From contig NZ_CP119421.1 in assembly GCF_030506305.1 (NCBI RefSeq), positions 176,354 to 240,353 on the forward strand: a DNA stretch of 64,000 nt, written 5' to 3'. Numbering within the stretch: position 1 is the first letter of the stretch; each line of letters begins with the position of its first letter. Made by a program: the position numbers and the translations under genes. This DNA is from Porifericola rhodea. GTDB lineage: Bacteria; Bacteroidota; Bacteroidia; Cytophagales; Cyclobacteriaceae. The notes below the pieces were generated by a model. The model searched no databases. It saw nothing but the letters and a program-made list of their open reading frames with translations, and was not told the origin of the DNA. Below, in pieces: positions 24,350 through 43,730 of this stretch.

Positions 24350-27300
24350 TTACTTTTTATAGCCTTCCTCATCAATATAAGCGAAGACCTGAGAAAAGGC
24401 TTCGTCTAAATCCTCTCTCAAACGCTCCTTATCAGATTCAAATCTATCTTTACTTTGCTTCAGCAAACGAATACACTCATTCTGTTTAATATGCGACAAT
24501 ACATTGACCAGATTATGAGCCTGTTCCCTAAAAGAGTTAATGTTGTTATCTTCAAGTGCAACCATAAGAGCCGTGCGATACTCTTTAATTTGCTCAGAAG
24601 AAGTTAACAACAAATCTTTATAGGCATTAGGGTTCTTTTGATGGTACTCTTCCAGCAGAGCAAACATATTCTTCTGCCCTACTTTGCTTGCTTTTGAAGT
24701 TTCTTTTTTGTGAAATGATGCTTTAGCCACGTTTTTGCAGAGTTTCTCAGCCAGTTCTTCAGAGTCTATGGGTTTTTCTACGAAGTCATTCATGCCATAC
24801 TTCAGATATTTGCGCTGCTCTTTGTTAGATACAGACGCAGTAACAGCAATAATGGGAACCTTCTTAAAGTACTCTCCCCTTATGCTTCTAATATTACTAG
24901 CCGTTTCATAGCCATCCATTACCGGCATCATAATGTCCATAAGAATGACGTCAAACTTTTGAGTACTTTGAAGGATATCTAGTGCTTCCTGCCCATTCGT
25001 AGCGATCTGGAGCTGTATTCCCCAATATTCGCAAAAACCTTTCATTAAAAATTGGTTAGGCTCCATATCTTCTACATAGAGCACATGCAATCCCCTAAGT
25101 GTGTTTTTATCAAACTGGACAAAACTATTCATACATACAGAACCTTGAACTTCCTGAAGCGGTAAATCTACGGTAAAGGTAGTTCCCTCTCCCTCTTTAC
25201 TTTCCAGCTGTAATGAACCGTTTTGCAGGGCAATCAGCTTTTTGGTAATTGTAAGCCCCAGGCCGGTTCCTCCATATTTTCTGTTGGTAGAAGAGTTAGC
25301 TTGTGTAAAGGCTTTAAAGACCTGCTGCTGCTCTTCGGCAGACATACCTATACCACTATCTTTTATAATAATACTAAACCTATCGGCTTTGTTTGGTTTA
25401 AGTATCAGCTTTACAGTACCCTTATGAGTAAATTTGACCGCATTACTCAAGAGGTTGTTCAGCACCTGGCTTACTCTGGTAGGGTCTCCCATCAGACATT
25501 GAGGGAACTGATCATCAATCTCCAGTTGTAATTTAATGCCTTTACTTTCGGCCTGGGCTTTAAACATACGAATGGTACGGCGCGAGAGCTCTACCATATC
25601 GTAGGCAATATTTTCAAGCAATATTTTTCCTGCCTGTAGCTTTGAGAAATCCAGTATGTCATTGACAAGACTTAAAAGATGCTCGGCAGAAAAACTTAAA
25701 GTGCTGATGGTTTCATCCTGAGCTGGTAGGTGCGCCTGTTGCTGCAGTAAGGTAGACAACCCAACTATCACATTTAGCGGAGTCCTAATCTCATGGCTCA
25801 TCACTGACAGAAACTCGTCTTTAGCTTTTAAAGCTTTCTCCAGTTCTATTTTGGTGGCTATCAGCTCATCTTCGTACTGCTTTCTTTCAGTAACGTCTTC
25901 AATAAGAATCAGCTCTTTGGTGCCGCCATCCTGTTGGAAGATATGCGTCTGCACATTGGCATAGATGGTAGCTCCATTTTTAGTCTTATGCCTGCTTACT
26001 TTATGAAATGAAGATGAAATGTTATCTAGCCGCTCAGAAAACTGCCAGTCGTGTTTGGTTTCTCCATCTCCTAACAAAGTAAGCGAAGGCATGCCTATAA
26101 ACTCCTCTCTGCTATAACCATATTTGTTGATAGCAGCCTCGTTGACGTCAAGTATGGCATCGGTAGCAGAATCTAGTAATATGAGCGGGTTAGGGTTGTT
26201 GGTAAAAAGATATTTGTATTTTTCTTCGCTCTCTTTCAGTTTAATGACCGACTCTTTACGATCTGTAAAGTCCTCTACAATACCTACGAAGCCGATAGCT
26301 CTCTGATCTTCTACCATCAGCGGCGTAAAGGTTACATAAAACCATTTGGTAGCGCCAGATTTAAGAAGATAGCGGCAATCTATTGTCTTGTGAAACAGCT
26401 CTCCTTTCTCTCTGGCAAGTTGCCATGATTTAAACAATCTGCTTTTGTCTTCCGGGTGTAAGTTCTGGAAAATACCTTCTCCTAGAGCTTCTTCATGAGT
26501 TATATGACCAATCTCCTGTAGCTTTTTGTTGGTCCAGGTGCAAAAGCCTTCTTTGTCTGTCAGAAAAATACCTACGGGGGCTGCCATTACCAGTGTACGG
26601 AACCTTTCTTCGCTGGTCTTGAGTTTGTTTTCAGCTATGGTTTTAGAAGTAATATCCAGACCTGCTGCCTGAAACTCTTCTAATATTCCATCCTGATTGT
26701 ATACTGGTATAATAGTCCAATGATGCCAATACCTCTGCCCTTCAAGCGTTTCCAGCATATACTTATCAGCAGATGGTTTGCCATCTTTAGCAATCTGCCT
26801 TAGCTTTTTAATAAAGCGTGGCTGATCATTAACAGGTATAATATCCAGAAAGCGCTTCCCTAAAAGTTGATCTATAGGTTTACCCAGAAACCTCACACAG
26901 GCATGATTAGCAAAGCTGATAGTACTATCAGGCTGAAAGCGGCAAATCATCTCATGCTGAGTGTTAATTACACTACGGTAAAGATTCTCAGTATAGCGAA
27001 GCTTCTCTTCCTGCAATTTGCGCTCAGATATATCTCTACCAAAAATAGTAGCACCAGCTACCTTCTGCCGGTTTAGTATTGGGTGAAAATGAAACTCATA
27101 ATAAAAGTCTTGCCCGGCAAAATGGAAAAAGTACTGTACTGTAAACTTCTCACCGGCAAGTACTCTGCTAAAATAATTACGCCAATTAGACTCTACACTA
27201 GACCTGGAGGCTCCATATGCCGGAAAAAATTGCTTGTTTAACTCAATCTGTACTCCGGCAAACTTAGTTGCCTCCCTCTGCGCCTTTGCGTTAAATTCCG

Positions 27301-27850
27301 TAACGTAATGATGTTTATCTATAGACCAAACCAGATCATCAGTATACTCTACCAACATTTTTAGCCGTGCCTTGTCAAAAGCAAGCCTACGCTCAGTCTC
27401 TTTACGAGCCGTAATATCAGTAATTCTAACAAGCTCGTAGGTTTCGCCTTCTATCTGTACCTGTCGGGCCTCCCTTAACCCCCAGAAAATTCTGTTCTTT
27501 AAGCTTACATAGGCTACTTCGGATGAGTTATCCCTAAACCTTTTCCACTTATCATGATTGGCTGAGGCTTTATGAAATTGGTACTCATGCCGGCCAACTA
27601 GCTCTGACTTATCATTTAGCTCAAACATAACCTTTGCCTCCTCATTACACATGAGAACCTGCTTACTATCCTGATGAATGAGCAGGAGGGCATCTGGTGA
27701 AGCTTCAAAGATTTGTTGATAGAAAGAATAAACCGCTTGTTCCTTATCAGCACTGTAAAAGGGTGAGCGTTGCTGAATGATGTCTATCAGCTCTTCTTTA
27801 CTTAGTTGATTTAATTGCTCGTAATTGGATTCCAGTTCCAGGTTTCTCAT
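24350..27850 (-). CDS. Hybrid sensor histidine kinase: multiple PAS/PAC domains, HisKA, HATPase_c, a receiver, and a C-terminal HPt-like domain
   Basis: PAS repeats across roughly aa 20-650, the H-box 'SVMSHEIRTPLNVIVG', the ATPase 'GGTGLGLTITKKL', the receiver 'VLYVEDMEPNQ...ILMDIMMPVMDGYE', and a C-terminal helical 'HNLVNVLSHI' HPt-like segment. Confidence 0.85.
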   Translation of the reverse strand: MRNLELESNYEQLNQLSKEELIDIIQQRSPFYSADKEQAVYSFYQQIFEASPDALLLIHQDSKQVLMCNEEAKVMFELNDKSELVGRHEYQFHKASANHDKWKRFRDNSSEVAYVSLKNRIFWGLREARQVQIEGETYELVRITDITARKETERRLAFDKARLKMLVEYTDDLVWSIDKHHYVTEFNAKAQREATKFAGVQIELNKQFFPAYGASRSSVESNWRNYFSRVLAGEKFTVQYFFHFAGQDFYYEFHFHPILNRQKVAGATIFGRDISERKLQEEKLRYTENLYRSVINTQHEMICRFQPDSTISFANHACVRFLGKPIDQLLGKRFLDIIPVNDQPRFIKKLRQIAKDGKPSADKYMLETLEGQRYWHHWTIIPVYNQDGILEEFQAAGLDITSKTIAENKLKTSEERFRTLVMAAPVGIFLTDKEGFCTWTNKKLQEIGHITHEEALGEGIFQNLHPEDKSRLFKSWQLAREKGELFHKTIDCRYLLKSGATKWFYVTFTPLMVEDQRAIGFVGIVEDFTDRKESVIKLKESEEKYKYLFTNNPNPLILLDSATDAILDVNEAAINKYGYSREEFIGMPSLTLLGDGETKHDWQFSERLDNISSSFHKVSRHKTKNGATIYANVQTHIFQQDGGTKELILIEDVTERKQYEDELIATKIELEKALKAKDEFLSVMSHEIRTPLNVIVGLSTLLQQQAHLPAQDETISTLSFSAEHLLSLVNDILDFSKLQAGKILLENIAYDMVELSRRTIRMFKAQAESKGIKLQLEIDDQFPQCLMGDPTRVSQVLNNLLSNAVKFTHKGTVKLILKPNKADRFSIIIKDSGIGMSAEEQQQVFKAFTQANSSTNRKYGGTGLGLTITKKLIALQNGSLQLESKEGEGTTFTVDLPLQEVQGSVCMNSFVQFDKNTLRGLHVLYVEDMEPNQFLMKGFCEYWGIQLQIATNGQEALDILQSTQKFDVILMDIMMPVMDGYETASNIRSIRGEYFKKVPIIAVTASVSNKEQRKYLKYGMNDFVEKPIDSEELAEKLCKNVAKASFHKKETSKASKVGQKNMFALLEEYHQKNPNAYKDLLLTSSEQIKEYRTALMVALEDNNINSFREQAHNLVNVLSHIKQNECIRLLKQSKDRFESDKERLREDLDEAFSQVFAYIDEEGYKK

Positions 27851-28259: not shown

Positions 28260-29039
28260 TTAGCGTTCGGTCAGTCTCTTTTCAATTTCAGCCATTTTTT
28301 GTTCTAGCTTGGATACTCTCTCTTCAATTAATAGTGGTGGGTTGAGATAAGTACTATAGAAACCTTCTACTTTCCACAACTCTGATACCTCTGTACTGTC
28401 TACTACTATAGGGGGGTGCTGCGAATTATCTGCTACAAAATATAACTGTTCTTTCGTGTGTTTGTATCGGCGAACATAAATTCCTTCCTGTACCACCAGC
28501 ACATACACTTGCCCTTCTTTCAGCTTATCTTTAAAATCTACTTCTAGGGGGCAGCATGAGAGCACATCGCCAACATGCAGGCCTGTATCCAGCCATCGCA
28601 TGCTATCGTCCTGTACCTCAAAAGCCCGAGACTTTTTTTGAGTAGTGTCCGGCAAACGAACAAAAGGCAGACGGTTGATAAAATCCTTATTCTGATGGTT
28701 TACGACATACTCAATATACTGCGAACTTCTTACTAAAGGTGTGGCATCTTCCCGACTATCTTTATCTACATCTGCCTCAGCAGGCTTGGCACTCTTCTCA
28801 TGTTTGAAGAGATCAAATTTGAACAGCTCATTTACCGTCAGTTCTTTAGTTAACAATATGTCTATAGATAAGCCAAACTTTTGAGCAATCTGTATGATAG
28901 TTTCAATCTTGGGTTCGGCCCGCTCTTCTTCATAAGAACCTACTGTTCCTCTGGATAGATTAAACATTTCTGCAAAAGCAGCCTGACTAATCTTCTTCAC
29001 TGCTCTTATTTTCTTAATGTTTTTTCCGATTGTAGACAT
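28260..29039 (-). CDS. XRE-family HTH transcriptional repressor with a C-terminal LexA/CI-like S24 peptidase domain
   Basis: N-terminal HTH 'IKKIRAVKKISQAAFAEMFNLSRGTVGSYE'. The C-terminal region has the S24 catalytic Ser motif 'VQDDSMRW' and a downstream 'VYVRRYK' lysine. The ATG is at 29037-29039. The gene is divergent from the PspA module. Confidence 0.7.
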   Translation of the reverse strand: MSTIGKNIKKIRAVKKISQAAFAEMFNLSRGTVGSYEEERAEPKIETIIQIAQKFGLSIDILLTKELTVNELFKFDLFKHEKSAKPAEADVDKDSREDATPLVRSSQYIEYVVNHQNKDFINRLPFVRLPDTTQKKSRAFEVQDDSMRWLDTGLHVGDVLSCCPLEVDFKDKLKEGQVYVLVVQEGIYVRRYKHTKEQLYFVADNSQHPPIVVDSTEVSELWKVEGFYSTYLNPPLLIEERVSKLEQKMAEIEKRLTER

Positions 29040-29103
29040 ATTTATTTGCAAATTTTATTAGATATGCTAACTTTATTAGCAATTATACGTAAACTATGTA
29101 TAA

Positions 29104-29514
29104 ATGACAAATACAATGAACACCTACTACACTAAAGTTAAAAACTACCTTACCGAACTCAATTACGAAATAGTTGAGGAAAACGAAGCTGAGGGCATAC
29201 TCATCATAGATAATGAAGAGACCGGCGTAAGCCATATGGTACTATGCTGTGCCGAGCCCATATTAATTATTGAGCAGTATCTCTGCGAAATTAAGCAGGT
29301 AAGCCTGGAGACTTATCGCTTACTACTACAAAAAAACCGGGATATTATTCATGGGGCCTTTGCCCTGGATCAGTCTGGTACTAAGCTCATCTTTAGAGAT
29401 ACCCTGGTACTAGACACACTGGACCTTGATGAACTGGAATCAACTTTCAATTCCTTAGGGCTGCTATTGAGTGAGTTTACTCAACAAATTATTGAAATAT
29501 CTAGTGAAAATTAA
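29104..29514 (+). CDS. Small acidic cytoplasmic protein, YbjN/DUF2170-like (putative chaperone or regulator fold)
   Basis: 136 aa. The size, charge and order resemble the E. coli yjfI-yjfJ arrangement, where a YbjN-like protein precedes a PspA paralog. I could not compute this similarity, so it is an inference. Confidence 0.35.
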   Translation: MTNTMNTYYTKVKNYLTELNYEIVEENEAEGILIIDNEETGVSHMVLCCAEPILIIEQYLCEIKQVSLETYRLLLQKNRDIIHGAFALDQSGTKLIFRDTLVLDTLDLDELESTFNSLGLLLSEFTQQIIEISSEN

Positions 29515-29546
29515 CTCAAAATTATACACATTAATAAATCATTGAC

Positions 29547-30260
29547 ATGAACATTTTCAGAAGAATACTCAAAGTAGGACAAGCAGAAGCACATTCTGCC
29601 ATCAACCACCTGGAAGACCCTATTAAACTTACTGAACAGGGAATTCGCGATATGCGAGGCGATCTTGATAAAGCCTTACACGCTCTGGCTGAAGTGAAAG
29701 CACTAGCTATACGCACACAACGTGAACTTAACCAACAGCAAGATGTAAGCAAACAATATGAGCAGAAGGCAATATTGCTGCTTCAGAAAGCTCAGAAAAA
29801 TGAGTTAGATGCCACGGAGGCTGATCGTCTAGCAGCAGAAGCTTTAAATAAAAAAGAGCATGCTGATCAACAAGTAAGGAATCTGGCTACAGAAAAGAAA
29901 AAATATGATGAATCCGTGTTAAAATTGGAACATAATATTAATACGCTAAAATCAAATATTAGCCAGTGGGAAAATGAACTTCGCACACTCAAAGCTCGCA
30001 TGAAGGTAAGTACTGCCACTAAAACAATGAATAAGCAGTTGGCTAAAATTGATACTTCCAGTACCGTTTCTATGCTGGAGCGCATGAAAAATAAAGTAGA
30101 GCAGGAAGAAGCTTTAGCACAGTCATACGGAGAAATAGCTGCTGAACCTAAGTCACTGGACGATGAAATTGACCAGGCATTGGAGAGCGAGCAGGCTTCC
30201 TCCTCTCAAAAGCTACAGGACCTTAAACAAAAACTAGGTATTAACCCTAACACTCCATAG
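29547..30260 (+). CDS. pspA: PspA/IM30 (Vipp1) family protein, bacterial ESCRT-III superfamily
   Basis: 'MNIFRRILKVGQAEAHSAINHLEDPIKLTEQGIRDMRGDLDKALHALAEV...' aligns in register with the E. coli PspA N-terminus ('[37 protein letters not shown]'). It is 237 aa and predicted all-alpha coiled coil. Confidence 0.8.
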   Translation: MNIFRRILKVGQAEAHSAINHLEDPIKLTEQGIRDMRGDLDKALHALAEVKALAIRTQRELNQQQDVSKQYEQKAILLLQKAQKNELDATEADRLAAEALNKKEHADQQVRNLATEKKKYDESVLKLEHNINTLKSNISQWENELRTLKARMKVSTATKTMNKQLAKIDTSSTVSMLERMKNKVEQEEALAQSYGEIAAEPKSLDDEIDQALESEQASSSQKLQDLKQKLGINPNTP

Positions 30261-30262
30261 TC

Positions 30263-30886
30263 ATGAATGATCTTTTCAACGCCGCCATTGCCGCACCTAA
30301 CTTATTACCTACTGCCTTACTTATTTTTGTAATGGTATACTGGATAATTGTAATCATTGGTGCTGTTGATGTAGATGCCATAGACATAGATGTGGATATG
30401 GACACGGACGTTGATGGAGAGATTTCGGTATCCTGGCTTAATAATTTATTGTCGTTTTTTAATTTAGGCCAGGTACCTTTCATGATTTTCATGACCTTTC
30501 TGGTAGTCCCCTTATGGTCAGGCTCGGTCATGACCAATTATTATCTGAACAATCAATCTCTGCTACTTGGATTACTAATCCTTGTTCCTCTTCTTATATT
30601 AAGTGCATTTATAGCTAAGGTTGCTACTCAGCCTTTTACGAAGCTTTTCAACCATCTGGAAAACAGCATTGATGGTGGAGAAAGACAAATCGGTAAAATA
30701 TGCACGCTTATTACCTCAGCAGATGATGCCAGAGCCGGGCAAGCTAAAGTTGATACCGGTGGGGCTCCGCTCCTACTCAACGTAATTACTGACGAAGGCA
30801 CCAGCATGTTCAGTGGCGACACCGCCATAGTACTGGAGTATTTGGCAGATAGAAATGTCTACCTCATAGAGCCTTACATTGCATAA
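30263..30886 (+). CDS. YqiJ/NfeD-like inner-membrane protein: TM helices, an acidic DxD repeat, and a C-terminal OB-fold
   Basis: N-terminal TM segments, the segment 'DVDAIDIDVDMDTDVDGE', and a C-terminal beta-rich segment 'GKICTLITSADDARAGQAKVDTGGAPLLLNVITDEG...AIVLEY'. It sits immediately upstream of the flotillin gene, as in E. coli yqiJK. Confidence 0.6.
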   Translation: MNDLFNAAIAAPNLLPTALLIFVMVYWIIVIIGAVDVDAIDIDVDMDTDVDGEISVSWLNNLLSFFNLGQVPFMIFMTFLVVPLWSGSVMTNYYLNNQSLLLGLLILVPLLILSAFIAKVATQPFTKLFNHLENSIDGGERQIGKICTLITSADDARAGQAKVDTGGAPLLLNVITDEGTSMFSGDTAIVLEYLADRNVYLIEPYIA

Positions 30887-30916
30887 CGCATTCTTAACAC
30901 CCTAAAATAAATCATC

Positions 30917-33085
30917 ATGGAAAAACAGATGCTCATTGCGCTGCTAGTGATCGGCGCAGTATTTTTCGTGGGCTTAATAGCCTTCGTTATCAAAATGTAC
31001 AACAAGGCTGTGCAGGGAGAAGCACTGGTTCGTACCGGACTAGGCGATGTAAAGGTTTCTTTTTCAGGAATTTTCGTAGTCCCAGTCTTGCATAAGCTGG
31101 AAGTCATGGACATCACTTTAAAGTCCATGGAAATTAACCGTATGGGTAAGGATGGCCTTATCTGTCGTGACAACTTAAGGGCAGATATCAAAGTGTCATT
31201 CTTTATCAGGGTAAATAAAACTACCGAAGATGTGGTGCATGTGGCACAATCAATAGGCTGTGCTCGTGCCTCTGATAAGGAGCAGCTACAAATGCTATTT
31301 GATGCTAAATTTTCTGAAGCGCTTAAGACTGTAGGAAAGCATTTTGAGTTTGTAGAATTGTACAACTCAAGAGCTAAATTTAAAGAAAAAATTCTAGAAG
31401 AAATAGGTACCGACCTTAATGGTTATATCCTGGATGACTGTGCCATAGACTATCTGGAACAAACGCCTATTGAGCACCTCAACACAGAAAACATACTGGA
31501 CTCAGAGGGTATCAAAAAAATTATTGATCTTACTGCCCAGCAAAAAATTCAATCTAACCTGATTGAAAATGAAAAGAAAAAGACCTTAAAAAAGCAGGAT
31601 GTAGAAGCTGAAGAAACCATACTTGAGCTAGAGCGCCAACTTATAGAAAAGCAGGAGCGTCAGCAACGTGAGGTATCTAACATACGTTCTCGTGAGGCTG
31701 CTGAGAGAGAAAAGGTACGACAGGAAGAACACAAAAAAGCGGAACAGGCACGTATTCTTACCGAAGAAGAAATTGGTATTGCCGAACAGAACAAAGATCG
31801 TCAGGTACTGGTAGCTCAGCGTAATAAGGAGCGTGCAGACGCCATAGAAGTAGAAAGAGTAGAGCAAGCTCGTATGCTGGAAGCTACCGAGAGGGAGCGC
31901 GTAGTTGAGCTGGCCAGAATAGAGAAGGAAAAATCACTGGAAGAGGAACGTAGAAATATACAGGAAGTGATACGTGAGCGAGTAGTGGTAGAGAAATCTA
32001 CGGTAGAGGAAGAAGAGAAAATTAAAGACACCAGGGCAATGGCTGAAGCTGAACGAAACAAGCAGGTGGCCATTAAAAATGCTGAACGTGATGCTCAGGA
32101 AGCTTTGGTTAAAGAAATTAAGTCTGCCGAAGCCGCCAAACAGGCTTCTGAACATAGAGCGAAACAGCTGATGATAGATGCCCAGGCAGAAGAGGATTCT
32201 GCAGCACATCGCGCCAATGCTATCAAAACTATGGCCGAAGCTGAAGCTGCTCAAAAAGCTGCTATTGGTCTGTCAGAAGCACAGGTTATGGAGGCTAAAG
32301 CAGCTGCCCGCGAAAAAGAAGGCGAAGCCGAAGCAGGTGTCATTGAAGCACAGGCAGAAGCGGATGCTAAAGGAATTAGCATGCGTGCCGAAGCTCAGGC
32401 TCAGGCTGACGAAAAGCTGGGGCTGGTAGCGGCAAAAGTAAACAGAGAGAAAGGTAAAGCAGAAGCTGAAGTAATTCAGGACAGAGCTACTGCCGAAGAA
32501 AAGCAAGGTATGGCACAGGCACGCGTACTGGAAGAGAAGATGACTGCTGAAGCTAAAGGTATACGCGAAAAAGCTCAGGCAATGCAGGCACTGGATGGTG
32601 CAGGTAAAGATCATGAAGAGTTCAGACTCAGACTAGAAACCGAGAAAGTGCTGGAAATGGCAAAAATCAACATTCAGAAAGATATAGCCGATGCGCAGGC
32701 TCAGGTAATAGGTGATGCACTGAAATCTGCCAGAATAGACATTATTGGCGGTGAAACCATGCTGTTTGATCAGATTATGGGCTCAATTGCCAAAGGTAAA
32801 GCAATAGATGGTATGATCGGAAACAGCCAGGCACTTACTGGTCTGAAAAACAATCTGCTGGGCAACGGAAATGGTAGTGCCTCTTTTGGAGATAACCTTA
32901 AGAAGTTTATAGGCCAATTTGGAATGAACTCAGAAGACCTGAAGAACCTTACGGTCTCTGCACTACTCATGAAAATGATGGGCAAAACTGAGCAACCTTC
33001 GCTTAAAGATGAGCTAAACAAACTTTTGGCAGTAGCACGTACCGCCGGAATGGCAGACGAACCTGTCCAGAATATCAAACTTTAA
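30917..33085 (+). CDS. Flotillin-like SPFH/Band-7 protein (YqiK/FloT type) with a long EA-rich coiled coil
   Basis: N-terminal TM plus an SPFH domain ('ALVRTGLGDVKVSFSGIFVVPVLHKLEVMDITLKSMEINRMGKDGLICRDNLRADIKVSFFIRV'), then an Ala/Glu/Lys-rich coiled coil of roughly 370 aa. Confidence 0.8.
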   Translation: MEKQMLIALLVIGAVFFVGLIAFVIKMYNKAVQGEALVRTGLGDVKVSFSGIFVVPVLHKLEVMDITLKSMEINRMGKDGLICRDNLRADIKVSFFIRVNKTTEDVVHVAQSIGCARASDKEQLQMLFDAKFSEALKTVGKHFEFVELYNSRAKFKEKILEEIGTDLNGYILDDCAIDYLEQTPIEHLNTENILDSEGIKKIIDLTAQQKIQSNLIENEKKKTLKKQDVEAEETILELERQLIEKQERQQREVSNIRSREAAEREKVRQEEHKKAEQARILTEEEIGIAEQNKDRQVLVAQRNKERADAIEVERVEQARMLEATERERVVELARIEKEKSLEEERRNIQEVIRERVVVEKSTVEEEEKIKDTRAMAEAERNKQVAIKNAERDAQEALVKEIKSAEAAKQASEHRAKQLMIDAQAEEDSAAHRANAIKTMAEAEAAQKAAIGLSEAQVMEAKAAAREKEGEAEAGVIEAQAEADAKGISMRAEAQAQADEKLGLVAAKVNREKGKAEAEVIQDRATAEEKQGMAQARVLEEKMTAEAKGIREKAQAMQALDGAGKDHEEFRLRLETEKVLEMAKINIQKDIADAQAQVIGDALKSARIDIIGGETMLFDQIMGSIAKGKAIDGMIGNSQALTGLKNNLLGNGNGSASFGDNLKKFIGQFGMNSEDLKNLTVSALLMKMMGKTEQPSLKDELNKLLAVARTAGMADEPVQNIKL

Positions 33086-33190
33086 GCATGATTACCATGA
33101 TGATGAACTGAGAGGCATAAGGGCGGAGTTTTCCGCTCTCTTGCTTTCTCCTACTGACCCTTCCATTGTATAGCTCCTTAATTTCAGACC

Positions 33191-36100
33191 ATGCAAAACC
33201 CTATAGTACAGCCTGAAAACATCAATATAGAAAGCGGCACCTATGAAGTGCTTCAAAAGAGATTAGCCCAAAGCCGGCAGCTACTTACCGAAAAGCTTAA
33301 CTCTCTAAACGAAGCTCGCAAATCGGTTTTTGGTTCATTGGAAACCAATTTACTTACCACCGAGAGGATACACACAGCAAATAACTGTATCCCATATGAC
33401 ATGGTCTCGCTCGGAGGACAGTTTATTTTTGGCTATAATGTGCACCTCGGACTCAAAAATCAGATAGAACTCTCCGATGTTTTTAGCATCTACACATATC
33501 ATGAGCACAGCTTTCATGAGCAAAGCCTGGCGTTAGTTGAAGATGAAACTTTTGTCAATGATTTTCAGAAGCTATACAAATATTATAAAGACACCATTTT
33601 TACCCGCTTTGTCAGCTCGGGGCCTTACCTCTACATGGTTTTCAGAATCAGCAAAGGTTTGGATGACATTAAAGCATTTAAGTGGCAGGTTCAGGGGGAT
33701 AAATTAGTCTACCTGGATGACCGAAGCGAGCTGGAAATAAAACAGGCTATTCAGCATGAGTTTCGCTGGCAAAGAGTCTCCAGAGACGCACACCGCAAAG
33801 GAAAACATCCACACATTTCAGTTGAAGATAAAGTCTTCGTTGAGACACTAAACGGAAAGCTCACCATAAAAATAGAAGACAATACTGATTCTGGTCATGG
33901 TATATATGAGGAGCCTGTAGATGATCCAGATCAAACCCTGGACGACGTTGAAATCTACTACAGTGTGTTAGAAAACCTGGTACTCCTAAAAATTCGTCCG
34001 TATCAGGAGAAGCAGTTCCGCTACCTCATCTTCAATACAAGACTACAGGAGGCCCGACGAATAGATGCAATAGAAGAAGCCTGCCTGCTCCTACCCGACG
34101 ACCAGGGAGTATTGTTTCCAAACGGCTATTATCTTCAGACCGGAGCCACCAAACTGTTTGAAAATGAACTACCTGACCTGAAGTTTGAAAAGAAGGTGCT
34201 CTCTCCAAATGGAGAAGATTTTCTATATGTATTTTACAATCGTGAGCAAGGTGTATATCAGCTACTTTTTTATAACCTGATCACTCAGCAGATGGGTACT
34301 CCTATCGTATGTCATGGTTACGCTATTTTTGATAATGGCGAACTCTGCTATTTTAATGCGGACCAGGAACCTAAAAAACACCACGCCATTCGTATCTGGC
34401 AAACTCCTTTTGTAGGACCTAATTATACCCTTGCACAGCAAAGTGACTCTTATCTGTATAAAGTTGGTAATAAGGATATTGTACGTCTTATGGCCGAAAG
34501 CCAGTTACTTATTAAGCTTATTGATAAGGGAGAAAACTACGAAAACCTCTACCTGGAATTAAAAAAACAATCTTCTACCATACTGGAAGCGTATTACTGG
34601 CTGGATAGAGCTGATGCTTTTCACATTAACGAACCAATACAGCAAATTTGTGATACTGCGGCTTCCGCGATAGATGAGTATGAGAAGGTTGTAAGTATTC
34701 GTAAGCAGACACACGAGCAATTATCCAATGTTAGCAAAAGTAGTGAGGTACTCCTCAAAAGTATACGCACCGCTCGTTACGCTCACATTCAGGAGTTTGT
34801 AGACCACCTTTCTGAACTTAGAAAACTTAGAGGTGAGATTGTATCGCTTCATGAGCTACGTTATATCAACAAACAGAAAGTAGAAGATTTAGAGCAGCAG
34901 GTAGAGGAAAGAAACGAAAAGCTGGCCCATCATTGTATTCGCTTTTTGTCACAAGAAGCGTCTCTGGATCCTTACCAAAATAAAATTGAAAAAATACAGG
35001 CAGAAATAGACCAGCTGAAGAAAGTGGTAGATGCAGAAAAGGTGGAAGCAGATATTAAACAAAGCTCGGCTGACCTGGAAATGCTGGTTGAAATAGTAAG
35101 TAACCTTAAAATTGAGGATGCCACACTCACTACTCAAATTATTGATCGTATTTCGGTGCTGTTTGCGGAATTCAATAAGATTAAAGCCGCACATAAGCGA
35201 AAACGCAAAGAATTATTAGGCAAAGAGGGAAAAGCAGAGTTTGAAGCACAAAAAAAGCTGGTCAATCAGGCCATGCTCAACTATCTGGATGTTGCAGATA
35301 CCCCCGACAGATGTGATGAATACCTGAACAAGCTGATGGTACAGCTGGAAGAACTGGAAGCTAGATTTGCTGAATTTGATGAGTTTGTTAGTCAGATCAA
35401 TGACCTGCGGGAGGACTTGTACAATGCCTTTGAAGCCAGAAAAGTACAGCTGGTAGAAGCTAGAAATAAACGGTCAAACACTCTGGCACAGTCAGCTGAA
35501 CGAATACTCAAGGCCATACAAAACCGTGTTAAAAGCATCAGTGAGATAAGTGAACTGAACGGCTACTTTGCCAGTGACCTCATGGTTGAAAAGGTCAATC
35601 GTATAGTAGCTGAGCTCAAAACACTACAGGATACTACCAAAGCAGATGATGTATTGAGCCAACTCAAAAGCCTGAAAGAAGATACTGTTCGCCAGATCCG
35701 CGACCGTTCGGAGATTTATGCTGAAGGAGGTAATACTATCCGCCTTGGCAACCATAGTTTTCTAGTAACTACCTCTAGCTTGGCTCTTACTATCCTCGTC
35801 AAAAACGGACAGCTGTATTATCACCTTAGTGGCACCAACTTTTATGAGCCAATCTTAAATAGTGAGCTTTCTGCTTATAAGCCCTACTGGGAACAGGCCA
35901 TACTATCTGAAAACGAGGAGGTATATCGCGCTGAATATTTGGCTTACTTACTTTTTAAAGCTTCTGAGCGCAGAGAAACTGCCCCCCTACACCAACTGGC
36001 CGATCTAGACGAAAAATCACTCCTTACAGTAGTGCAGGAGTTTATGGCTGGCCGATACGAAGAGGCTTATGTAAAAGGTGTGCATGACCATGATGCTATG

Positions 36101-38074
36101 CATATTCTAAAAAACCTATTGCAAATATACCAGTCGGCTGGCCTTTTAAGGTTTCATTCGGCTGCCAGAGTATGTGCCGCACTCTGTTGGAAATATTTCC
36201 TGAAAAAAGAACAAAAGGACTTTATCAACCATCAGCTTAAGGGTGCCGGCGCTATTCTCAAAGTTTTTCCAAACAGCGCTGTTTTTTCTGAGCTACTTGA
36301 GTTATTGCAATCAGAAATATCTCAATTTCTTAAAGCCTACCCCCTATTTACAGAATCTCTTTCAAAAGAAGCGGCTCTGTACCTCTTTGAGGAATTAAGT
36401 AGTGATGATGACTTCATATTCTCTCAACAGGCAAAGACAAAACAAGAAGCATTTGAGAAATACCTGGACAACAACAAAAATCGCAAAGCATATGAACAAT
36501 CAGTACAGAGCCTGAAGGCACATCCTTTTACTCAGTTTGAGCTAATCAAAAAGTGGGTATCATCCTGGACACAGGAGTATGGCCATGAGGGTGTAGCAGT
36601 AGATGAAGTAGCCTTCCTACTGTTTAGCGATCATGACACTTATCAGACACATAACACAGAACTTAGCATAGCACTTAGCGGCTTACAAGGCAATCACTCC
36701 TTACTCAATGAAGGCAACTATCAGCTTGACTACGTCGCGTTTATGCAGAAACTAAGGGTTTTTGCAGAAGAAGCCGTACCTGACTTTAAAGCTTTTCAGC
36801 AGTTGAAAAAGGAGTTGACGCAGCAGTTTGAAGCAGAACTGAAGCTAGATAGCTTTAAACCTAAAGTCATGAGCGCTTTTGTCCGCAACCGACTAATTGA
36901 CAAAGTCTACTTTCCTCTCATCGGGGCTAACTTAGCCAAACAAATTGGCGCAGCTGGTGCTGATAAACGCACTGACCGTATGGGCATGCTACTTCTGATT
37001 TCGCCCCCTGGCTATGGTAAAACGACATTGATGGAATACGTAGCCAACCGCCTGGGTATCATTTTCATGAAAATCAACGGGCCCGCTATCGGACATACCG
37101 TCACTTCAGTAGACCCGGAAGCAGCGCCTAATGCAGCAGCCAGAGAAGAGCTACATAAGCTCAACCTGGCCTTTGAAATGGGCGATAACGTTATGATTTA
37201 CCTGGATGACATTCAACATTGCCACACAGAATTTTTGCAAAAATTTATCTCCCTTTGTGATGCTCAGCGAAAAATTGAAGGGGTATACAAAGGTAAAAGC
37301 AAAACCTACGACTTCCGTGGAAAGAAGGTGTGTGTAGTTATGGCCGGAAACCCCTATACTGAAAGTGGAGAAAAATTTCAGATACCCGACATGCTTTCTA
37401 ATCGTGCAGATATTTATAATCTGGGTGATATTATTGGAGACTCTGCCGATGATTTTAAGCTGAGCTATATTGAGAACAGTCTTACCTCAAACCCTGTCCT
37501 TCATAAGCTCTCCAGCAAAAGTCAAAAAGATATTTATGCTATGATCCGTATCGCTGAAAGTGGAAGTCGCGAGGGAATAAGCTTTGAAGCTTCACATGCA
37601 GTTGAAGAAGTTAACGAATATGTAGAGGTGCTGAAAAAAATGATAACTGTCAGAGATGCTGTGCTTCGTGTAAATACGGAATATATACGCTCCGCAGCTC
37701 AGTCAGATGAGTACAGAACCGAACCTGCCTTTAAGCTACAGGGCTCTTACCGTGATATGAACAAAATGGCAGAAAAAGTACAGCCTATTATGAATGAGAA
37801 AGAGCTGCAAACCTTAATTATGTCGCATTACGAAAATGAGGCCCAGACCTTAACAAATGGCGCAGAAGCCAATCTTCTCAAATTTAAAAAGATGAGCAAT
37901 CAACTTAGTGATGCAGAAGCCAAACGCTGGGAGGAGATTAAAAGTATTTTCGCAAAAGCGCAGCAAACCAAGGCTTATGGTAATGGTGTAGGCCCGGCGG
38001 TAGAAAAAATGAATGATATTTCTAACAGTCTTAAGCTCATTGCCCAACATTTAACAAAAAACGGACAGGCATAA
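33191..38074 (+). CDS. Giant (1627 aa) multidomain protein with no recognisable N-terminal family, a long coiled coil, and a C-terminal AAA+ (MoxR/AAA_5-like) ATPase
   Basis: Walker A 'ISPPGYGKTT' at about aa 1272 (nt 37004-37027). Walker B 'MIYLDDIQH' at about aa 1335, followed by 'EFLQKFISLCDAQRKIE' and 'VCVVMAGNP'. A heptad-rich coiled coil runs across about aa 550-850. Public annotations of this protein type often read 'DNA repair ATPase'. Confidence 0.7.
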   Translation: MQNPIVQPENINIESGTYEVLQKRLAQSRQLLTEKLNSLNEARKSVFGSLETNLLTTERIHTANNCIPYDMVSLGGQFIFGYNVHLGLKNQIELSDVFSIYTYHEHSFHEQSLALVEDETFVNDFQKLYKYYKDTIFTRFVSSGPYLYMVFRISKGLDDIKAFKWQVQGDKLVYLDDRSELEIKQAIQHEFRWQRVSRDAHRKGKHPHISVEDKVFVETLNGKLTIKIEDNTDSGHGIYEEPVDDPDQTLDDVEIYYSVLENLVLLKIRPYQEKQFRYLIFNTRLQEARRIDAIEEACLLLPDDQGVLFPNGYYLQTGATKLFENELPDLKFEKKVLSPNGEDFLYVFYNREQGVYQLLFYNLITQQMGTPIVCHGYAIFDNGELCYFNADQEPKKHHAIRIWQTPFVGPNYTLAQQSDSYLYKVGNKDIVRLMAESQLLIKLIDKGENYENLYLELKKQSSTILEAYYWLDRADAFHINEPIQQICDTAASAIDEYEKVVSIRKQTHEQLSNVSKSSEVLLKSIRTARYAHIQEFVDHLSELRKLRGEIVSLHELRYINKQKVEDLEQQVEERNEKLAHHCIRFLSQEASLDPYQNKIEKIQAEIDQLKKVVDAEKVEADIKQSSADLEMLVEIVSNLKIEDATLTTQIIDRISVLFAEFNKIKAAHKRKRKELLGKEGKAEFEAQKKLVNQAMLNYLDVADTPDRCDEYLNKLMVQLEELEARFAEFDEFVSQINDLREDLYNAFEARKVQLVEARNKRSNTLAQSAERILKAIQNRVKSISEISELNGYFASDLMVEKVNRIVAELKTLQDTTKADDVLSQLKSLKEDTVRQIRDRSEIYAEGGNTIRLGNHSFLVTTSSLALTILVKNGQLYYHLSGTNFYEPILNSELSAYKPYWEQAILSENEEVYRAEYLAYLLFKASERRETAPLHQLADLDEKSLLTVVQEFMAGRYEEAYVKGVHDHDAMHILKNLLQIYQSAGLLRFHSAARVCAALCWKYFLKKEQKDFINHQLKGAGAILKVFPNSAVFSELLELLQSEISQFLKAYPLFTESLSKEAALYLFEELSSDDDFIFSQQAKTKQEAFEKYLDNNKNRKAYEQSVQSLKAHPFTQFELIKKWVSSWTQEYGHEGVAVDEVAFLLFSDHDTYQTHNTELSIALSGLQGNHSLLNEGNYQLDYVAFMQKLRVFAEEAVPDFKAFQQLKKELTQQFEAELKLDSFKPKVMSAFVRNRLIDKVYFPLIGANLAKQIGAAGADKRTDRMGMLLLISPPGYGKTTLMEYVANRLGIIFMKINGPAIGHTVTSVDPEAAPNAAAREELHKLNLAFEMGDNVMIYLDDIQHCHTEFLQKFISLCDAQRKIEGVYKGKSKTYDFRGKKVCVVMAGNPYTESGEKFQIPDMLSNRADIYNLGDIIGDSADDFKLSYIENSLTSNPVLHKLSSKSQKDIYAMIRIAESGSREGISFEASHAVEEVNEYVEVLKKMITVRDAVLRVNTEYIRSAAQSDEYRTEPAFKLQGSYRDMNKMAEKVQPIMNEKELQTLIMSHYENEAQTLTNGAEANLLKFKKMSNQLSDAEAKRWEEIKSIFAKAQQTKAYGNGVGPAVEKMNDISNSLKLIAQHLTKNGQA

Positions 38075-38138: not shown

Positions 38139-38867
38139 TTGAATTATTTCATATATATGAAGGTGAATACTACGAGCAATCATTCCGAAGCAATATTTTT
38201 AAGTCGCTGGCCACGCTTTTTTGCGGTAGCCTCCTGTATCTTTATCGGAATATTTCTGCTTTTGCCTTCCAGCTTACTTTTAAGCACTTTATTTACTCTT
38301 TTTTTTTCTGCTTTTATTTATACCGGGAGGTGCTTATGGAAACCATTAGGCACTTGGGGTGGTGCGGCTAATGCAATTACTGCACTCAGAACTTTAGGCA
38401 TACTGCTGTTGCTGTTTTTTCAGGCAGAGTTGCCTCCGGCAGCATTTTTTGTTGTAGGAATACTGATACTAATCGCCGACGGACTAGACGGTTATTATGC
38501 CCGCAAATATAATACAGTATCTGCCTTCGGAGATTTATTTGATAAAGAAACTGACGCTTTCTTTGTACTGGCTTTTTGTATTATCCTGATCAAAAAAGAG
38601 CTGATAGGTATGTGGGTAGTTTGGCCTGCCCTACTACGCTACATCTTTGTATTGGTACTTCACACCTTCCGTATACAACATATAGTTTTGTCCTACTCTT
38701 TTCGCAGGCAGTTTATAGGCATGTGGTTTATGGGTACTATCATGGCCTGTTTTGTGCTGCCCAGACCTGTTTATACCGCAGGGATGATTTTCGCTACAGC
38801 TATGCTAGCTTATTCTTTTATGAAAGATACTTTTCTGATGTTAAAACTTAAATCAGATCAGGGGTAA
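38139..38867 (+). CDS. CDP-alcohol phosphatidyltransferase family membrane protein
   Basis: Signature 'DGLDGYYARKYNTVSAFGDLFDKETD' (D-G-x2-A-R-x8-G-x3-D-x3-D) in a polytopic membrane protein. The start is uncertain; there is an alternative ATG at 38157. Confidence 0.7.
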   Translation: MNYFIYMKVNTTSNHSEAIFLSRWPRFFAVASCIFIGIFLLLPSSLLLSTLFTLFFSAFIYTGRCLWKPLGTWGGAANAITALRTLGILLLLFFQAELPPAAFFVVGILILIADGLDGYYARKYNTVSAFGDLFDKETDAFFVLAFCIILIKKELIGMWVVWPALLRYIFVLVLHTFRIQHIVLSYSFRRQFIGMWFMGTIMACFVLPRPVYTAGMIFATAMLAYSFMKDTFLMLKLKSDQG

Positions 38868-39737: not shown

Positions 39738-40799
39738 TTAGATATAAAAATCCCTAAACAAGTTTAAAAAAAAAGCAGCTGCCTGCTCCCACTGGTAGGG
39801 CTGGGAAGAGGTACGTGCCACTTTTGCTGATTGCCAATATTCACGCATCAGCCTGTCATTCCTACATAATTCTATGAAATTTCCCGCTAATTTGAAAATA
39901 TTTGGGCTTATCAGACCTTTTCCTTTCAGTAAATGCCTTTCCGTGAAGCCCCCTTTGCACAACAAAAGCGGCAGACCACAGCTTTTTGCCTCTTGAATAG
40001 CCATACCAAAAGTCTCCATTTGTGCAGCAGACACAAACAGATGATGCAGACTATATTGCTGTAATACTTCATGGTGCTCCATCTCTCCGCTAAAGTGCAC
40101 CTTACTTTTTAAACTACTGCTTTGTACCAGCTTTTGGCAAGATTGGTAATAAGCCGGTTCCATATCGGTACGACCGATAATATTGATCATAAAATCATCT
40201 TCTGCCTTACTTAAATAGGCTAGCTGCTCAAGGAAGCTGAGTATACCTTTACGCTCAACTACATTGGCTACCATTATAGCTTTCAGGGGTTTACTCAAAC
40301 TTGAAGAAGGTACATCCACCACGCTATAGGCAGGCTCTACTACCATCATATGGCCTTCCATCTTCTTTTCCAGAAGGTAAGCTTTTGAAAACTCGCTGGT
40401 CAGGAGGAATACATCAAAAAAACGCAGTACCGGAGCCTCAGCTTGCAAAAAGTATTGCTCTGCATCTATCCCCTTTGGTGGAAACAGGCTTTGCAGATGA
40501 TGCATAATAAAAAACGAAAAAGCCTTTTTAGGGCTGTATTTCAACAGCTTATGCATCTCTTCTACAAAAAGGCTATCTACACCATAGATGCCCGCCTTAT
40601 CTGCCTGAATTACCTTATGGTACTCAGGAAAACTCATAATTTCTACGGACTGACCTAACTGAAGTAGCGCCTGTATCAGCTTTTCATTATACAGATTACC
40701 CCCTGAGGGCAAATGCCTGTCGTCTGGCAGTACAAAATTAATGGTTTGCGGAAGTACCTGAACCTGGCCACTCATGGCATTAGGCCACTTTGCCTTCAT
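39738..40799 (-). CDS. Glycosyltransferase family 1 (GT4-like)
   Basis: C-terminal GT1 motif region 'LFVSAAQMETFGMAIQEAKSCGLPLLLCKGG'. Confidence 0.7.
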   Translation of the reverse strand: MKAKWPNAMSGQVQVLPQTINFVLPDDRHLPSGGNLYNEKLIQALLQLGQSVEIMSFPEYHKVIQADKAGIYGVDSLFVEEMHKLLKYSPKKAFSFFIMHHLQSLFPPKGIDAEQYFLQAEAPVLRFFDVFLLTSEFSKAYLLEKKMEGHMMVVEPAYSVVDVPSSSLSKPLKAIMVANVVERKGILSFLEQLAYLSKAEDDFMINIIGRTDMEPAYYQSCQKLVQSSSLKSKVHFSGEMEHHEVLQQYSLHHLFVSAAQMETFGMAIQEAKSCGLPLLLCKGGFTERHLLKGKGLISPNIFKLAGNFIELCRNDRLMREYWQSAKVARTSSQPYQWEQAAAFFLNLFRDFYI

Positions 40800-41160
40800 A
40801 AGACGCCCAGGCTACATGCGACTCACCCAGCGTAATTTTGAGGCTTCCTGTAAAGCTGTCTTTTATCTCATCGCTTATCTGCTGATGGATGTAGTGGGCC
40901 AGAAATTCTGTAGTGGTAAGTTTACCTTTGAACTGCGCTAACTCATCCAAATTCTGGTACTTGAGAGGAGCCAAGGCCTGTTGTAGTTTTTTGGTAGCAA
41001 TATCAATATCTATGACAATATTATTTTCATCCAGTTGCTCAGATTTAAACTCAGCATCCACAACATATGTAGCACCATGCATATGCTGCGCAGGGCCAAA
41101 AGCTTTGGCAGGTAGTGAATGCGCGATCATCATATGATCGCGAATGGTGACTGTGTACAT
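40780..41160 (-). CDS. 6-pyruvoyl-tetrahydropterin synthase / QueD-like family enzyme
   Basis: 126 aa with 'TIRDHMMIAHSL' and 'HMHGATYVV' (an HGH-N-Y-like zinc motif). It overlaps the upstream and downstream genes, suggesting translational coupling. Confidence 0.6.
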   Translation of the reverse strand: MYTVTIRDHMMIAHSLPAKAFGPAQHMHGATYVVDAEFKSEQLDENNIVIDIDIATKKLQQALAPLKYQNLDELAQFKGKLTTTEFLAHYIHQQISDEIKDSFTGSLKITLGESHVAWASYEGKVA

Positions 41161-41175
41161 AATAAACGGTTTAGC

Positions 41176-43090: not shown

Positions 43091-43127
43091 ATATCTACAA
43101 TAAGCCCTTTTATGTAAATGTTTAGCC

Positions 43128-43730
43128 TTATTTACTGATATCTAAGAGGTGGCCCATCAGGTTTTGTTTGGTTTGCAGATAATCTAAATTTTCTTCGTGA
43201 GGCTTTATCTCTATCGGTACTCTGCCCAGTACTTCTACACCTGACTCTTTTAAGCTTTCCAGCTTATCCGGATTGTTAGTCATTAGCAGTACAGAGCTTA
43301 CTTCAAGGTCTCTGAGTATATCAATTGCAATGCTGTAGTCTCTTTCGTCTATTTCAAAACCCAGGTGCACATTGGCTTCGGCGGTATTCAGCCCTTTGTC
43401 CTGTAGGTTATACGCTTTCATCTTGTTAATCAGGCCTATACCTCTTCCTTCCTGTCGCAGGTAAATTACTACTCCGCCATCTTTTCCGGTCATTTTCATA
43501 GATTGATCCAGTTGCTCGCCACAGTCGCAACGCAGAGAGCCAAACACATCGCCGGTCATACACTCAGAATGTATACGTACCAATACCGGTTTGCTAAAAT
43601 CTGTCTTATCGCTCACCATAGCCAGGTGGGGCATGGGGTTATCCGCCTCTCCGGAATATCCGATCATTTTAAAAGAACCAAAGCGAGTAGGTAATTTCGT
43701 TTCTGCTTGTCTTACTAATTTATGTGTCAT
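43128..43730 (-). CDS. ribA: GTP cyclohydrolase II, a stand-alone RibA-type enzyme
   Basis: 'LVRIHSECMTGDVFGSLRCDCGEQL' (the zinc-binding Cys triad), 'GRGIGLINKMKAYNLQDKGLNTAEAN', 200 aa. Confidence 0.85.
   Translation of the reverse strand: MTHKLVRQAETKLPTRFGSFKMIGYSGEADNPMPHLAMVSDKTDFSKPVLVRIHSECMTGDVFGSLRCDCGEQLDQSMKMTGKDGGVVIYLRQEGRGIGLINKMKAYNLQDKGLNTAEANVHLGFEIDERDYSIAIDILRDLEVSSVLLMTNNPDKLESLKESGVEVLGRVPIEIKPHEENLDYLQTKQNLMGHLLDISK

Follow-up and report, generated by a model that had tools for sequence, protein, structure and literature searches.

Operons in which a CesT/Tir-PspA dyad is joined by a YqiJ/YuaF protein with three transmembrane (TM) segments, a Band-7/flotillin protein and a protein composed of a β-propeller, coiled coils and an AAA+ module have already been described in silico by Ravi et al. 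(mSystems 2024; bioRxiv 2020; PMC11237479). The exemplar of that study was from Dokdonia donghaensis (ANH61663.1), and a divergent gene, denoted '<-CHTH+Protease', was also listed in its Table S3. It was reported that an abbreviated flotillin-YqiJ-ATPase form is more widespread and that some (proteobacterial) versions contain a PLD-family hydrolase, and ATP-dependent, ESCRT-like membrane remodelling comparable to that by Snf7/Vps4 was proposed (PMC11237479). Here we analysed a locus of this kind in a stretch of 64,000 nucleotides of Porifericola rhodea DNA (contig NZ_CP119421.1, positions 176,354 to 240,353; hereafter the window), where a minus-strand regulator gene, termed REG below, stands opposite five plus-strand genes for a CesT-like protein, PspA, a YqiJ-like protein, flotillin and a giant AAA+ ATPase.

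The window locus is a further member of this published in-silico operon class. It carries a CesT/Tir gene upstream of pspA, a flotillin gene, a gene for a 3-TM protein, a propeller/coiled-coil AAA+ gene and a divergent gene for a protein with a helix-turn-helix (HTH) and a protease fold; the six gene types, their order, their orientation and the phylum were the same as in the class of Ravi et al., and nothing structural differed. The original prediction, made from the DNA letters, had described a non-canonical PspA locus joining PspA, flotillin, an NfeD/YqiJ-like protein, a giant AAA+ protein and a divergent HTH-S24-fold regulator. This description was confirmed, and the gene order, strands, coordinates and domains of the six genes were borne out by the map of open reading frames (ORFs), Pfam and BLASTP. 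The suggestion that the module was novel could not be kept, because the same operon is present in Ravi et al. (PMC11237479). What is added here concerns the divergent 'protease', which, judged from its residues, is a paralogue of non-canonical LexA with a degenerate catalytic site and with boxes of the SOS type, and the linkage of the genes, which was quantified and indicated that the regulator travels with CesT-PspA and not with the ATPase.

It was found that the locus is a fusion of two modules, a Bacteroidota-only REG/CesT-PspA cassette and a pan-bacterial YqiJ-flotillin-AAA+ triad. The window proteins were searched against all ORFs of 80 loci, one genome per species, from Bacteroidota, Planctomycetota, Verrucomicrobiota/Kiritimatiellota, Desulfobacterota, Clostridia and Omnitrophota, across which the ATPase showed 45-63% identity over ~1600 residues. 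Among the 62 loci with ≥3.5 kb of upstream DNA, a flotillin gene was located upstream of the ATPase gene in 59, from six or more phyla, and a YqiJ-like gene in 58. In contrast, PspA was found within ~10 kb at the ATPase locus in 25/31 Bacteroidota loci and 0/30 loci from other phyla. The constant partner of the ATPase is therefore flotillin, not PspA. REG showed a similar distribution to PspA (23/31 Bacteroidota loci versus 0/30 from other phyla) and in every case stood divergent to the CesT-like gene, except that pspA took this place in L074 (loci are denoted by L numbers). The CesT-like gene was always paired with PspA and REG in the loci surveyed. Because the full arrangement recurred in 23 Bacteroidota loci of other genera, it is beyond chance, and the neighbourhood comparison that had been proposed along with the original prediction thus spoke for conserved linkage of both flotillin and YqiJ, and of PspA in Bacteroidota.

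When the search was started from REG homologues, the regulator was divergent from CesT-PspA in all four loci (L082-L085). The genes downstream of this cassette were different: DUF4178, an unknown protein, DUF350 and spermine synthase in Fulvivirga ulvae (L082:4666-10795) and in L084:4748-10789, the flotillin/ATPase triad in Adhaeribacter (L083), and only a DUF3784 gene in L085. Since the same cassette heads polyamine operons, REG is tied to CesT-PspA and not to flotillin/ATPase, and the cassette could be regarded as a compact sensor-regulator unit that also drives polyamine operons.

A gene of the PLDc_2 family (phospholipase D/HKD) was observed after REG, on the strand of REG, in Adhaeribacter (L083:10796-11275), and no PLD-family gene was found among the ORFs scanned in the window. 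The spacer between the flotillin and ATPase genes was seen to tolerate insertions with both genes kept (L016:5659-6183, L065:6718-7248 and L021:9287-9916). The ORFs in these spacers were considered as extra components and rejected; judged from their translations, they encode unrelated lipoproteins, transposase-like proteins and one putative endonuclease-like protein.

Self-cleaving S24 proteins (LexA, CI and UmuD) possess a scissile Ala-Gly (or Cys-Gly) bond in the linker, a Lys as general base and a Ser as nucleophile. REG matched the Pfam families HTH_3 (E=8e-11) and Peptidase_S24 (E=1.6e-10). Its start was placed at the TTG at 29051 by the ORF list, and the ATG at 29039, which yields the N-terminus 'MS.IGKNIKK' common to all orthologues, is most likely the true start. 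It was reported that the SOS response of Bacteroidota is run by a 'non-canonical LexA' with an XRE-type HTH and an S24 domain (Sánchez-Osuna et al., NAR 2021, PMC8565304); with the full-length non-canonical LexA of Belliella, which has identical length, REG shared 30% identity over 238 of 259 residues (E=1e-27). For inspection of the catalytic positions, 24 operon-linked regulators were aligned with the alignment of that study (PMC8565304) and with LexA, CI and UmuD, and the residues were counted in 119 homologues. At the cleavage site of REG, 'SQYIEY' replaced 'KASAGY', by which Ala-Gly became Ile-Glu; Gly was found at the scissile-bond position in none of the 119 homologues and Ala in two. 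The catalytic Lys of 'VYKR' was replaced by Arg in all 24 aligned regulators ('YVRRY' in the window REG), and across the family this position was Arg in 112, Lys in 5 and His in 2. The Ser position ('GDSM') was occupied by Glu in 85 homologues and by Ala in 25, which together make 110/119, and by Ser in only 6. The window REG keeps the Ser ('DDSM'), a minority state confined to a Catalinimonas-like clade or close relatives.

Among the genera in which REG or the ATPase is present, Dokdonia, Rufibacter, Pontibacter and Hymenobacter have entries for a true non-canonical LexA (PMC8565304 data), and one true non-canonical LexA locus that was inspected had no CesT/PspA neighbours. Because the true protein coexists in the same genera and its locus lacks CesT/PspA, REG was considered a paralogue and not the SOS regulator. 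As far as sequence tells, REG is thus a paralogue of the Bacteroidota non-canonical LexA in which the catalytic site has degenerated, not the SOS repressor. With both the scissile bond and the catalytic Lys lost, the sequence speaks against induction by RecA-stimulated self-cleavage, and REG is not expected to respond to mitomycin C through this route. Of the earlier description as a LexA/CI-type S24 autopeptidase, the fold could be retained, but the autopeptidase could not, with Ala-Gly missing and Lys changed to Arg; control by an autocleavable repressor fell with it, as the family has neither the bond nor the base and usually not the Ser.

Two operator-like sites, O1 and O2, were found 18 bp apart in and around the 64-bp divergent region between REG and the CesT-like gene. 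Their consensus, CTAA-N5-TTAG, is the motif of the Bacteroidota non-canonical LexA with its experimentally validated SOS regulon (PMC8565304). Exact copies were present within 150 bp upstream of the REG gene at 14/23 loci, compared with a shuffle mean of 0.13 (maximum 3), and the motif density upstream of REG was 120x that of the rest of the same loci. When one mismatch was allowed, a site was found ≤100 bp from the REG start in 24/28 loci, and at least two sites in 19/28. The two-site, 18-bp arrangement was also observed in L074, L008, L009, L082, L084 and L085. The spacing was lineage-specific, being 18 bp in Cytophagales, while three sites at ~6, 48 and 80 bp were found in Flavobacteriaceae. 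No enrichment of CTAA-N5-TTAG was detected over the whole window (3 sites versus 2.7 expected); the significance of the boxes therefore derives from their conserved position across loci and not from a window-wide count. In the Hymenobacter loci L018, L021 and L028, CTCA-N5-TGAG palindromes (e.g. GCTCAAAGCTTGAGC) replaced CTAA-N5-TTAG in the regulator-CesT spacer, which looks like an operator variant that co-varied with the Hymenobacter regulator clade. The SOS regulon motif of Flavobacteriaceae is GGA-N5-TCC (PMC8565304). Because the Flavobacteriaceae REG promoters keep CTAA-N5-TTAG despite this, the boxes are most simply interpreted as predicted operators of REG itself. A scan for σ70-type promoters was not used, as it gave 19 sites against 23.6 expected, which is background level, and Bacteroidota promoters differ.

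The giant protein matched DUF3686 (E=4.6e-181), DUF7902 (E=2.9e-26) and AAA (E=3e-6) in Pfam. It begins with an N-terminal helix (aa 15-47) and a β-propeller (aa 53-404, DUF3686), followed by a long helical/coiled-coil region that contains DUF7902 (aa 421-720) and by a middle domain of helices. The single AAA+ module, with Walker A at aa 1274-1279 and Walker B, 'IYLDDIQH', at aa 1336-1343, precedes a C-terminal part that is again helical. AlphaFold2 (AF2) models were obtained for aa 1-720 and aa 1200-1627, with predicted local distance difference test (pLDDT) values of 83.9 and 76.9, respectively, and the latter model exhibited an AAA+ α/β core with helical domains. Foldseek returned generic propellers and no specific relative for aa 1-720. 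For aa 1200-1627 it gave weak and mixed PDB matches, with RuvB at the top (E=9e-4), followed by MCM, NorQ/CbbQ, MoxR and p97, and Vps4 at rank 30 (E=5.6e-3). The structural check proposed for this protein thus confirmed the propeller, helical and AAA+ folds but produced no specific relative. In a sequence search of the PDB, the Walker A region alone aligned, to p97, Rix7 or RuvB (E≥8.5e-5). Pfam revealed no MIT domain, the N-terminus being a propeller, and no nuclease, helicase or DNA-binding domain; no hydrophobic segment was detected by hydropathy scan, indicating that the protein is soluble.

The motif set of an AAA+ ATPase, namely Walker A, Walker B, sensor 1 and arginine, was present. No form other than GYGKTT, hhhDDIQH, MAGNP(Y/F)T and NR(A/S)D was encountered in the loci with a match to the anchor pattern, which numbered 58-79 out of 80 for the different motifs. 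Because these motifs were single-form across all phyla sampled, the giant protein looks like a functional but atypical ATPase, with Asp-Asp instead of Asp-Glu in Walker B. At least 3724 homologues were found at E≤1e-10; Catalinimonas (Cytophagales), at 74-75% identity, was the closest named species among the matches listed. The homologues carry the NCBI product name 'DNA repair ATPase', and Pfam describes DUF3686 as 'ATPase involved in DNA repair'. No paper mentioning the name DUF3686 was found in the literature, nor any on 'DNA repair ATPase' together with flotillin. Given this lack of supporting literature and the genomic linkage to membrane proteins, the name, borne by thousands of proteins, is probably a systematic mis-annotation. 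The ATPase ORFs from outside Bacteroidota (L010, L022, L025, L045 and others) were ~200-400 codons longer (1847-2021 from stop to stop versus 1627 aa), and the extra length lies past the C-terminus of the window protein.

The CesT-like protein matched PF22550 (CesT_Tir_1, E=1.3e-48) and YbjN (E=8.8e-10), and its gene lies directly upstream of pspA. PspA covered 217/220 profile positions of PF04012 (PspA_IM30, E=3e-47); it fell well short of the NCBIfam thresholds set for canonical PspA and for LiaH, and it was therefore assigned to a divergent subfamily. The YqiJ-like protein, with three hydrophobic segments by hydropathy scan, matched YqiJ_N at E=1e-3, which is under the Pfam cut-off, and was collinear over its full length with Escherichia coli YqiJ in BLASTP (E=0.019, 24% identity). 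Its gene was always directly upstream of the flotillin gene in the surveyed loci. For flotillin, a Pfam scan of the full-length protein gave no match, probably owing to the low-complexity coiled coil, and scanning of aa 1-300 alone identified Band_7 (E=2.7e-9). It was 28% identical to E. coli YqiK over 475 aa (BLASTP, E=1e-46) and contained one N-terminal TM segment by hydropathy scan.

The features of the locus are collected in Table 1. The ORF map showed a minus-strand ORF at 28260-29051 followed by the five plus-strand ORFs, which are separated by gaps of 32, 2, 30 and 105 bp. The hairpin in the last gap may act as a partial terminator or as a site of RNA processing, and by attenuating or processing the transcript it could set the ratio of ATPase to flotillin.

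Table 1. Features of the PspA-flotillin-AAA+ locus (positions in the window)
Feature	Position	Strand	Basis or remark
REG, 259 aa: XRE/Cro-type HTH + pseudo-S24 (LexA/CI-fold) + C-terminal helix	28260..29039	-	HTH_3, Peptidase_S24
Operator-like site O1, CAAATTTTATTAG	29049..29061	.	one mismatch to CTAA-N5-TTAG; 18 bp from O2
Operator-like site O2, CTAACTTTATTAG	29067..29079	.	exact CTAA-N5-TTAG; within 64-bp divergent promoter region
CesT/Tir-like (YbjN-like) small chaperone-fold protein, 136 aa	29104..29514	+	PF22550, YbjN
PspA/IM30 (bacterial ESCRT-III) homologue, 237 aa	29547..30260	+	PF04012
YqiJ/YuaF (NfeD-like) membrane protein, 207 aa, soluble C-terminal domain	30263..30886	+	three hydrophobic segments, weak YqiJ similarity, synteny
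Flotillin, 722 aa: TM + SPFH/Band-7 + long Ala/Glu-rich coiled coil + C-terminal region	30917..33085	+	Band_7, YqiK match
GC-rich hairpin, 8 pairs, weak T-tail, in 105-bp flotillin-ATPase spacer	33120..33139	+	consensus scan only
Giant soluble AAA+ protein, 1627 aa	33191..38074	+	DUF3686, DUF7902, AAA; AF2 models

The locus is neither a prophage nor a defence island, and its neighbours are housekeeping genes. On the REG side there were genes for a PAS-rich hybrid histidine kinase, an NYN protein and an M16 peptidase, and on the ATPase side genes for a CDP-alcohol phosphatidyltransferase, a glycosyltransferase, PTPS, RibD_C, GTP cyclohydrolase II and MatE. PADLOC (PADLOC-DB 2.0) returned no match to a defence effector, only generic matches to HTH regulators and coiled coils and weak AAA/P-loop matches. 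The SOS, prophage or defence-island character that had been suggested for the locus was thus not supported, the triad moreover being chromosomal in many phyla. PspB, PspC and PspF, which had been stated to be missing, were not detected: none of their Pfam families was found among the six ORFs of the region or the 12 flanking ORFs scanned; LiaI and Toastrack were likewise not found among the ORFs of the region or the scanned flanking ORFs.

The hybrid histidine kinase, which lies directly beyond the REG gene, has 1166 aa with multiple PAS domains, HisKA, HATPase_c and a receiver (24350-27850, minus strand); matches to histidine kinases near the operon were sporadic in other loci, indicating that the linkage is not conserved. 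The phosphatidyltransferase (PgsA/cardiolipin-synthase-like; Pfam E=1.3e-15) is encoded on the strand of the operon at 38139-38867, 64 bp past the ATPase stop. No homologue of this gene was found beside the ATPase in any of the 80 loci; it was therefore not regarded as part of the system, and its adjacency to a membrane-remodelling operon is probably incidental. The pterin/riboflavin-related cluster (PTPS, RibD_C and GTP cyclohydrolase II) and the MatE transporter gene (40780-43730, minus strand) are ordinary metabolism genes.

We consider it probable that the window encodes a chromosomal membrane/envelope-stress operon of the class of Ravi et al., assembled from two evolutionary modules and provided with a non-cleavable REG and a flotillin-linked ATPase. 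REG would be a dimeric HTH repressor descended from non-canonical LexA, and its dimers on O1 and O2 would repress both divergent promoters, namely that of REG itself and that of the operon. Because self-cleavage is excluded by sequence, induction by a protein partner is suggested; because REG invariably travels with CesT-PspA, a partner switch would be the most likely trigger. The CesT-like chaperone might hold PspA, and upon the recruitment of PspA to damaged membrane the freed chaperone (or PspA itself) might engage the pseudo-protease domain of REG, leading to derepression. Precedents for such a switch are PspA-PspF and the chaperone cascades of the ExsC type in type III secretion systems. 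PspA would then seal or remodel the membrane, while flotillin and its NfeD-like partner would form an SPFH scaffold at its cytoplasmic side. The AAA+ protein, being soluble, might dock on this scaffold through its β-propeller and coiled-coil arms and use ATP to remodel or disassemble it or to extract clients, as the strict co-occurrence suggests. Recurrent pairings of SPFH and AAA+ proteins, such as HflK/C-FtsH and prohibitin-m-AAA, provide a parallel for flotillin-AAA+. With the two modules presumably fused in one transcription unit here, sealing by PspA and remodelling by flotillin/AAA+ would be co-induced.

Several points weigh against this interpretation. The 80 loci were the best tblastn matches and not a random sample, and no experimental work on this operon class was found in the literature. 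Co-transcription of the five genes is suggested by their spacing, and the hairpin lies ahead of the ATPase gene. That REG binds DNA is deduced from motif position and homology only, and in Cytophagales, the order of the closest named relatives of the window, the true non-canonical LexA also recognises CTAA-N5-TTAG and could be the binder. The window REG retains its Ser, and in principle an Arg could serve as base, though the Ala-Gly bond is missing. The partner switch draws on synteny and precedents, and the YqiJ assignment on weak sequence similarity and synteny. Finally, with Asp-Asp in Walker B, ATP turnover might be slow or purely regulatory.

Alternative explanations were weighed against this evidence. 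If REG were an autocleavable LexA/CI-type repressor, the operon would be SOS- or prophage-responsive and might belong to a defence island or act in abortive infection. The HTH and S24 folds and the 'DDSM' serine of the window REG fit this explanation, the operator motif equals the Bacteroidota SOS box, and the HTH models of PADLOC match the HTH of REG. However, neither Ala-Gly nor the Lys is left in REG, Gly is absent from the scissile position throughout the family, and Ser is usually Glu or Ala. As for defence, the PADLOC matches of the five effector genes were merely coiled-coil and P-loop noise, the flanks consist of the peptidase, NYN, kinase, lipid synthase, riboflavin/pterin and MatE genes described above, and the identity retained by the ATPase across phyla is unlike that of fast-evolving, patchy defence genes. 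This explanation is very improbable and can be regarded as largely refuted at the sequence level. SOS control might be indirect if the shared boxes were bound by the cleavable non-canonical LexA that the genome also encodes, or if this protein formed heterodimers with REG; the operon would then be SOS-inducible without cleavage of REG. S24 domains do mediate dimerisation in LexA and CI, the paralogues coexist in the same genera, and the box consensus is that of the validated SOS regulon. On the other hand, the PspA, flotillin and ATPase genes are not reported in the predicted regulons (PMC8565304), and the retention of CTAA-N5-TTAG by the Flavobacteriaceae REG promoters, next to an SOS motif of GGA-N5-TCC, and the co-varied CTCA-N5-TGAG of the Hymenobacter loci point to a specificity of REG's own, which makes indirect wiring rather unlikely.

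With respect to the ATPase, it might be a functional analogue of Vps4, with the PspA polymer as the primary substrate to be disassembled and recycled and with flotillin/NfeD merely as the membrane platform. Ravi et al. proposed remodelling comparable to that by Snf7/Vps4 (PMC11237479), according to a review of 2025 an ATPase like Vps4 'appears absent in bacteria', which leaves the role vacant, and PspA and the ATPase were co-operonic in most Bacteroidota loci. But a pspA gene within ~10 kb was missing from every locus of the other phyla, where flotillin and YqiJ were nearly always there, although PspA may be encoded elsewhere in those genomes; REG-CesT-PspA occurred without the ATPase in L082, L084 and L085; and the protein lacks an MIT domain and resembles RuvB, MCM, NorQ/CbbQ and p97 before Vps4. 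The pairing of PspA with a dedicated AAA+ protein, on which the original prediction had built its Vps4 analogy, is thus real in Bacteroidota, whereas the analogy was weakened, and PspA as primary substrate appears unlikely, if still worth consideration. Action on PspA cannot be the general role of the ATPase, since the loci of other phyla have no pspA; a Vps4-like action on PspA in Bacteroidota is possible. That the giant protein is a true 'DNA repair ATPase' beside incidental membrane genes is what the Pfam description and the NCBI product name would imply, and RuvB and MCM are among its weak best matches. These matches cover only the generic P-loop region, however, no paper mentions DUF3686, no nuclease, helicase or DNA-binding domain was found, and the linkage to flotillin/YqiJ is near-universal; a role in DNA repair is hardly credible.

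The envelope-stress reading bears on the question of how assemblies of bacterial ESCRT-III (PspA/Vipp1) and of flotillin come apart, and among genomic candidates for an ATP-driven remodeller of such assemblies this class of operon ranks first. Flotillin/NfeD, the universal partners, would be the prime candidate substrates of the ATPase, ahead of PspA. If the idea on the regulator is true, REG would illustrate clearly how an SOS repressor can give rise to a pseudo-enzyme. A further, tentative proposal, which we think much less likely to hold than to fail, has two parts: REG may found an undescribed 'pseudo-LexA' class, in which a dead SOS-repressor paralogue keeps the SOS-box specificity and self-cleavage has been swapped for a CesT-PspA protein signal, and the β-propeller AAA+ protein may be a dedicated remodeller of flotillin assemblies, in Bacteroidota also of PspA assemblies. 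If this were true, pseudo-LexA could link membrane repair to the DNA-damage network or serve to keep the two apart, and the propeller AAA+ protein would supply the ATP-driven remodelling activity that reviews list as missing in bacteria. The remaining interest of the locus lies in the ATPase, in the pseudo-LexA regulator with SOS-type operators and in the fact that a very large protein family is probably mis-annotated.

Two reports were found to be of no use for comparison: the Pseudomonas aeruginosa bac cluster (PMC10948618) belongs to the DUF2170/YjfI class and was rejected as a member of the same class, and a transcriptome paper on Flavobacterium psychrophilum showed only Band-7 genes under an extracytoplasmic function (ECF) promoter and was uninformative for this operon. 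By analogy only, the locus resembles Vps4-ESCRT-III, HflK/C-FtsH and prohibitin-m-AAA, as an AAA+ protein is coupled genetically to an ESCRT-III homologue and an SPFH scaffold; unlike Vps4 and FtsH, the window ATPase has no MIT and no protease domain, is soluble, and its fold is not specifically Vps4- or FtsH-like. With the canonical Psp system (PspF-PspABC) and with PspA-YdjGHI and LiaIH of Bacillus subtilis it shares a PspA effector and a divergently encoded regulator, and in B. subtilis, too, PspA is coupled to a protein of the SPFH type (YdjI); the window regulator is, however, predicted to be an HTH/pseudo-S24 repressor and not a σ54 activator. As in YqiJ-YqiK of E. coli and YuaF(NfeD2)-FloT of B. 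subtilis, an NfeD-like multi-TM gene lies directly upstream of the gene for a TM-SPFH-coiled-coil flotillin. Those pairs have no AAA+ gene, whereas the window flotillin is longer (722 versus 553 aa) and is placed inside a PspA operon. REG and non-canonical LexA have in common the XRE-HTH, the S24 fold, the C-terminal helix, the length of ~259 aa and CTAA-N5-TTAG, often in tandem, in their own promoters; REG differs in the loss of Ala-Gly, of Lys and usually of Ser, and its neighbours are CesT-PspA instead of error-prone polymerases.

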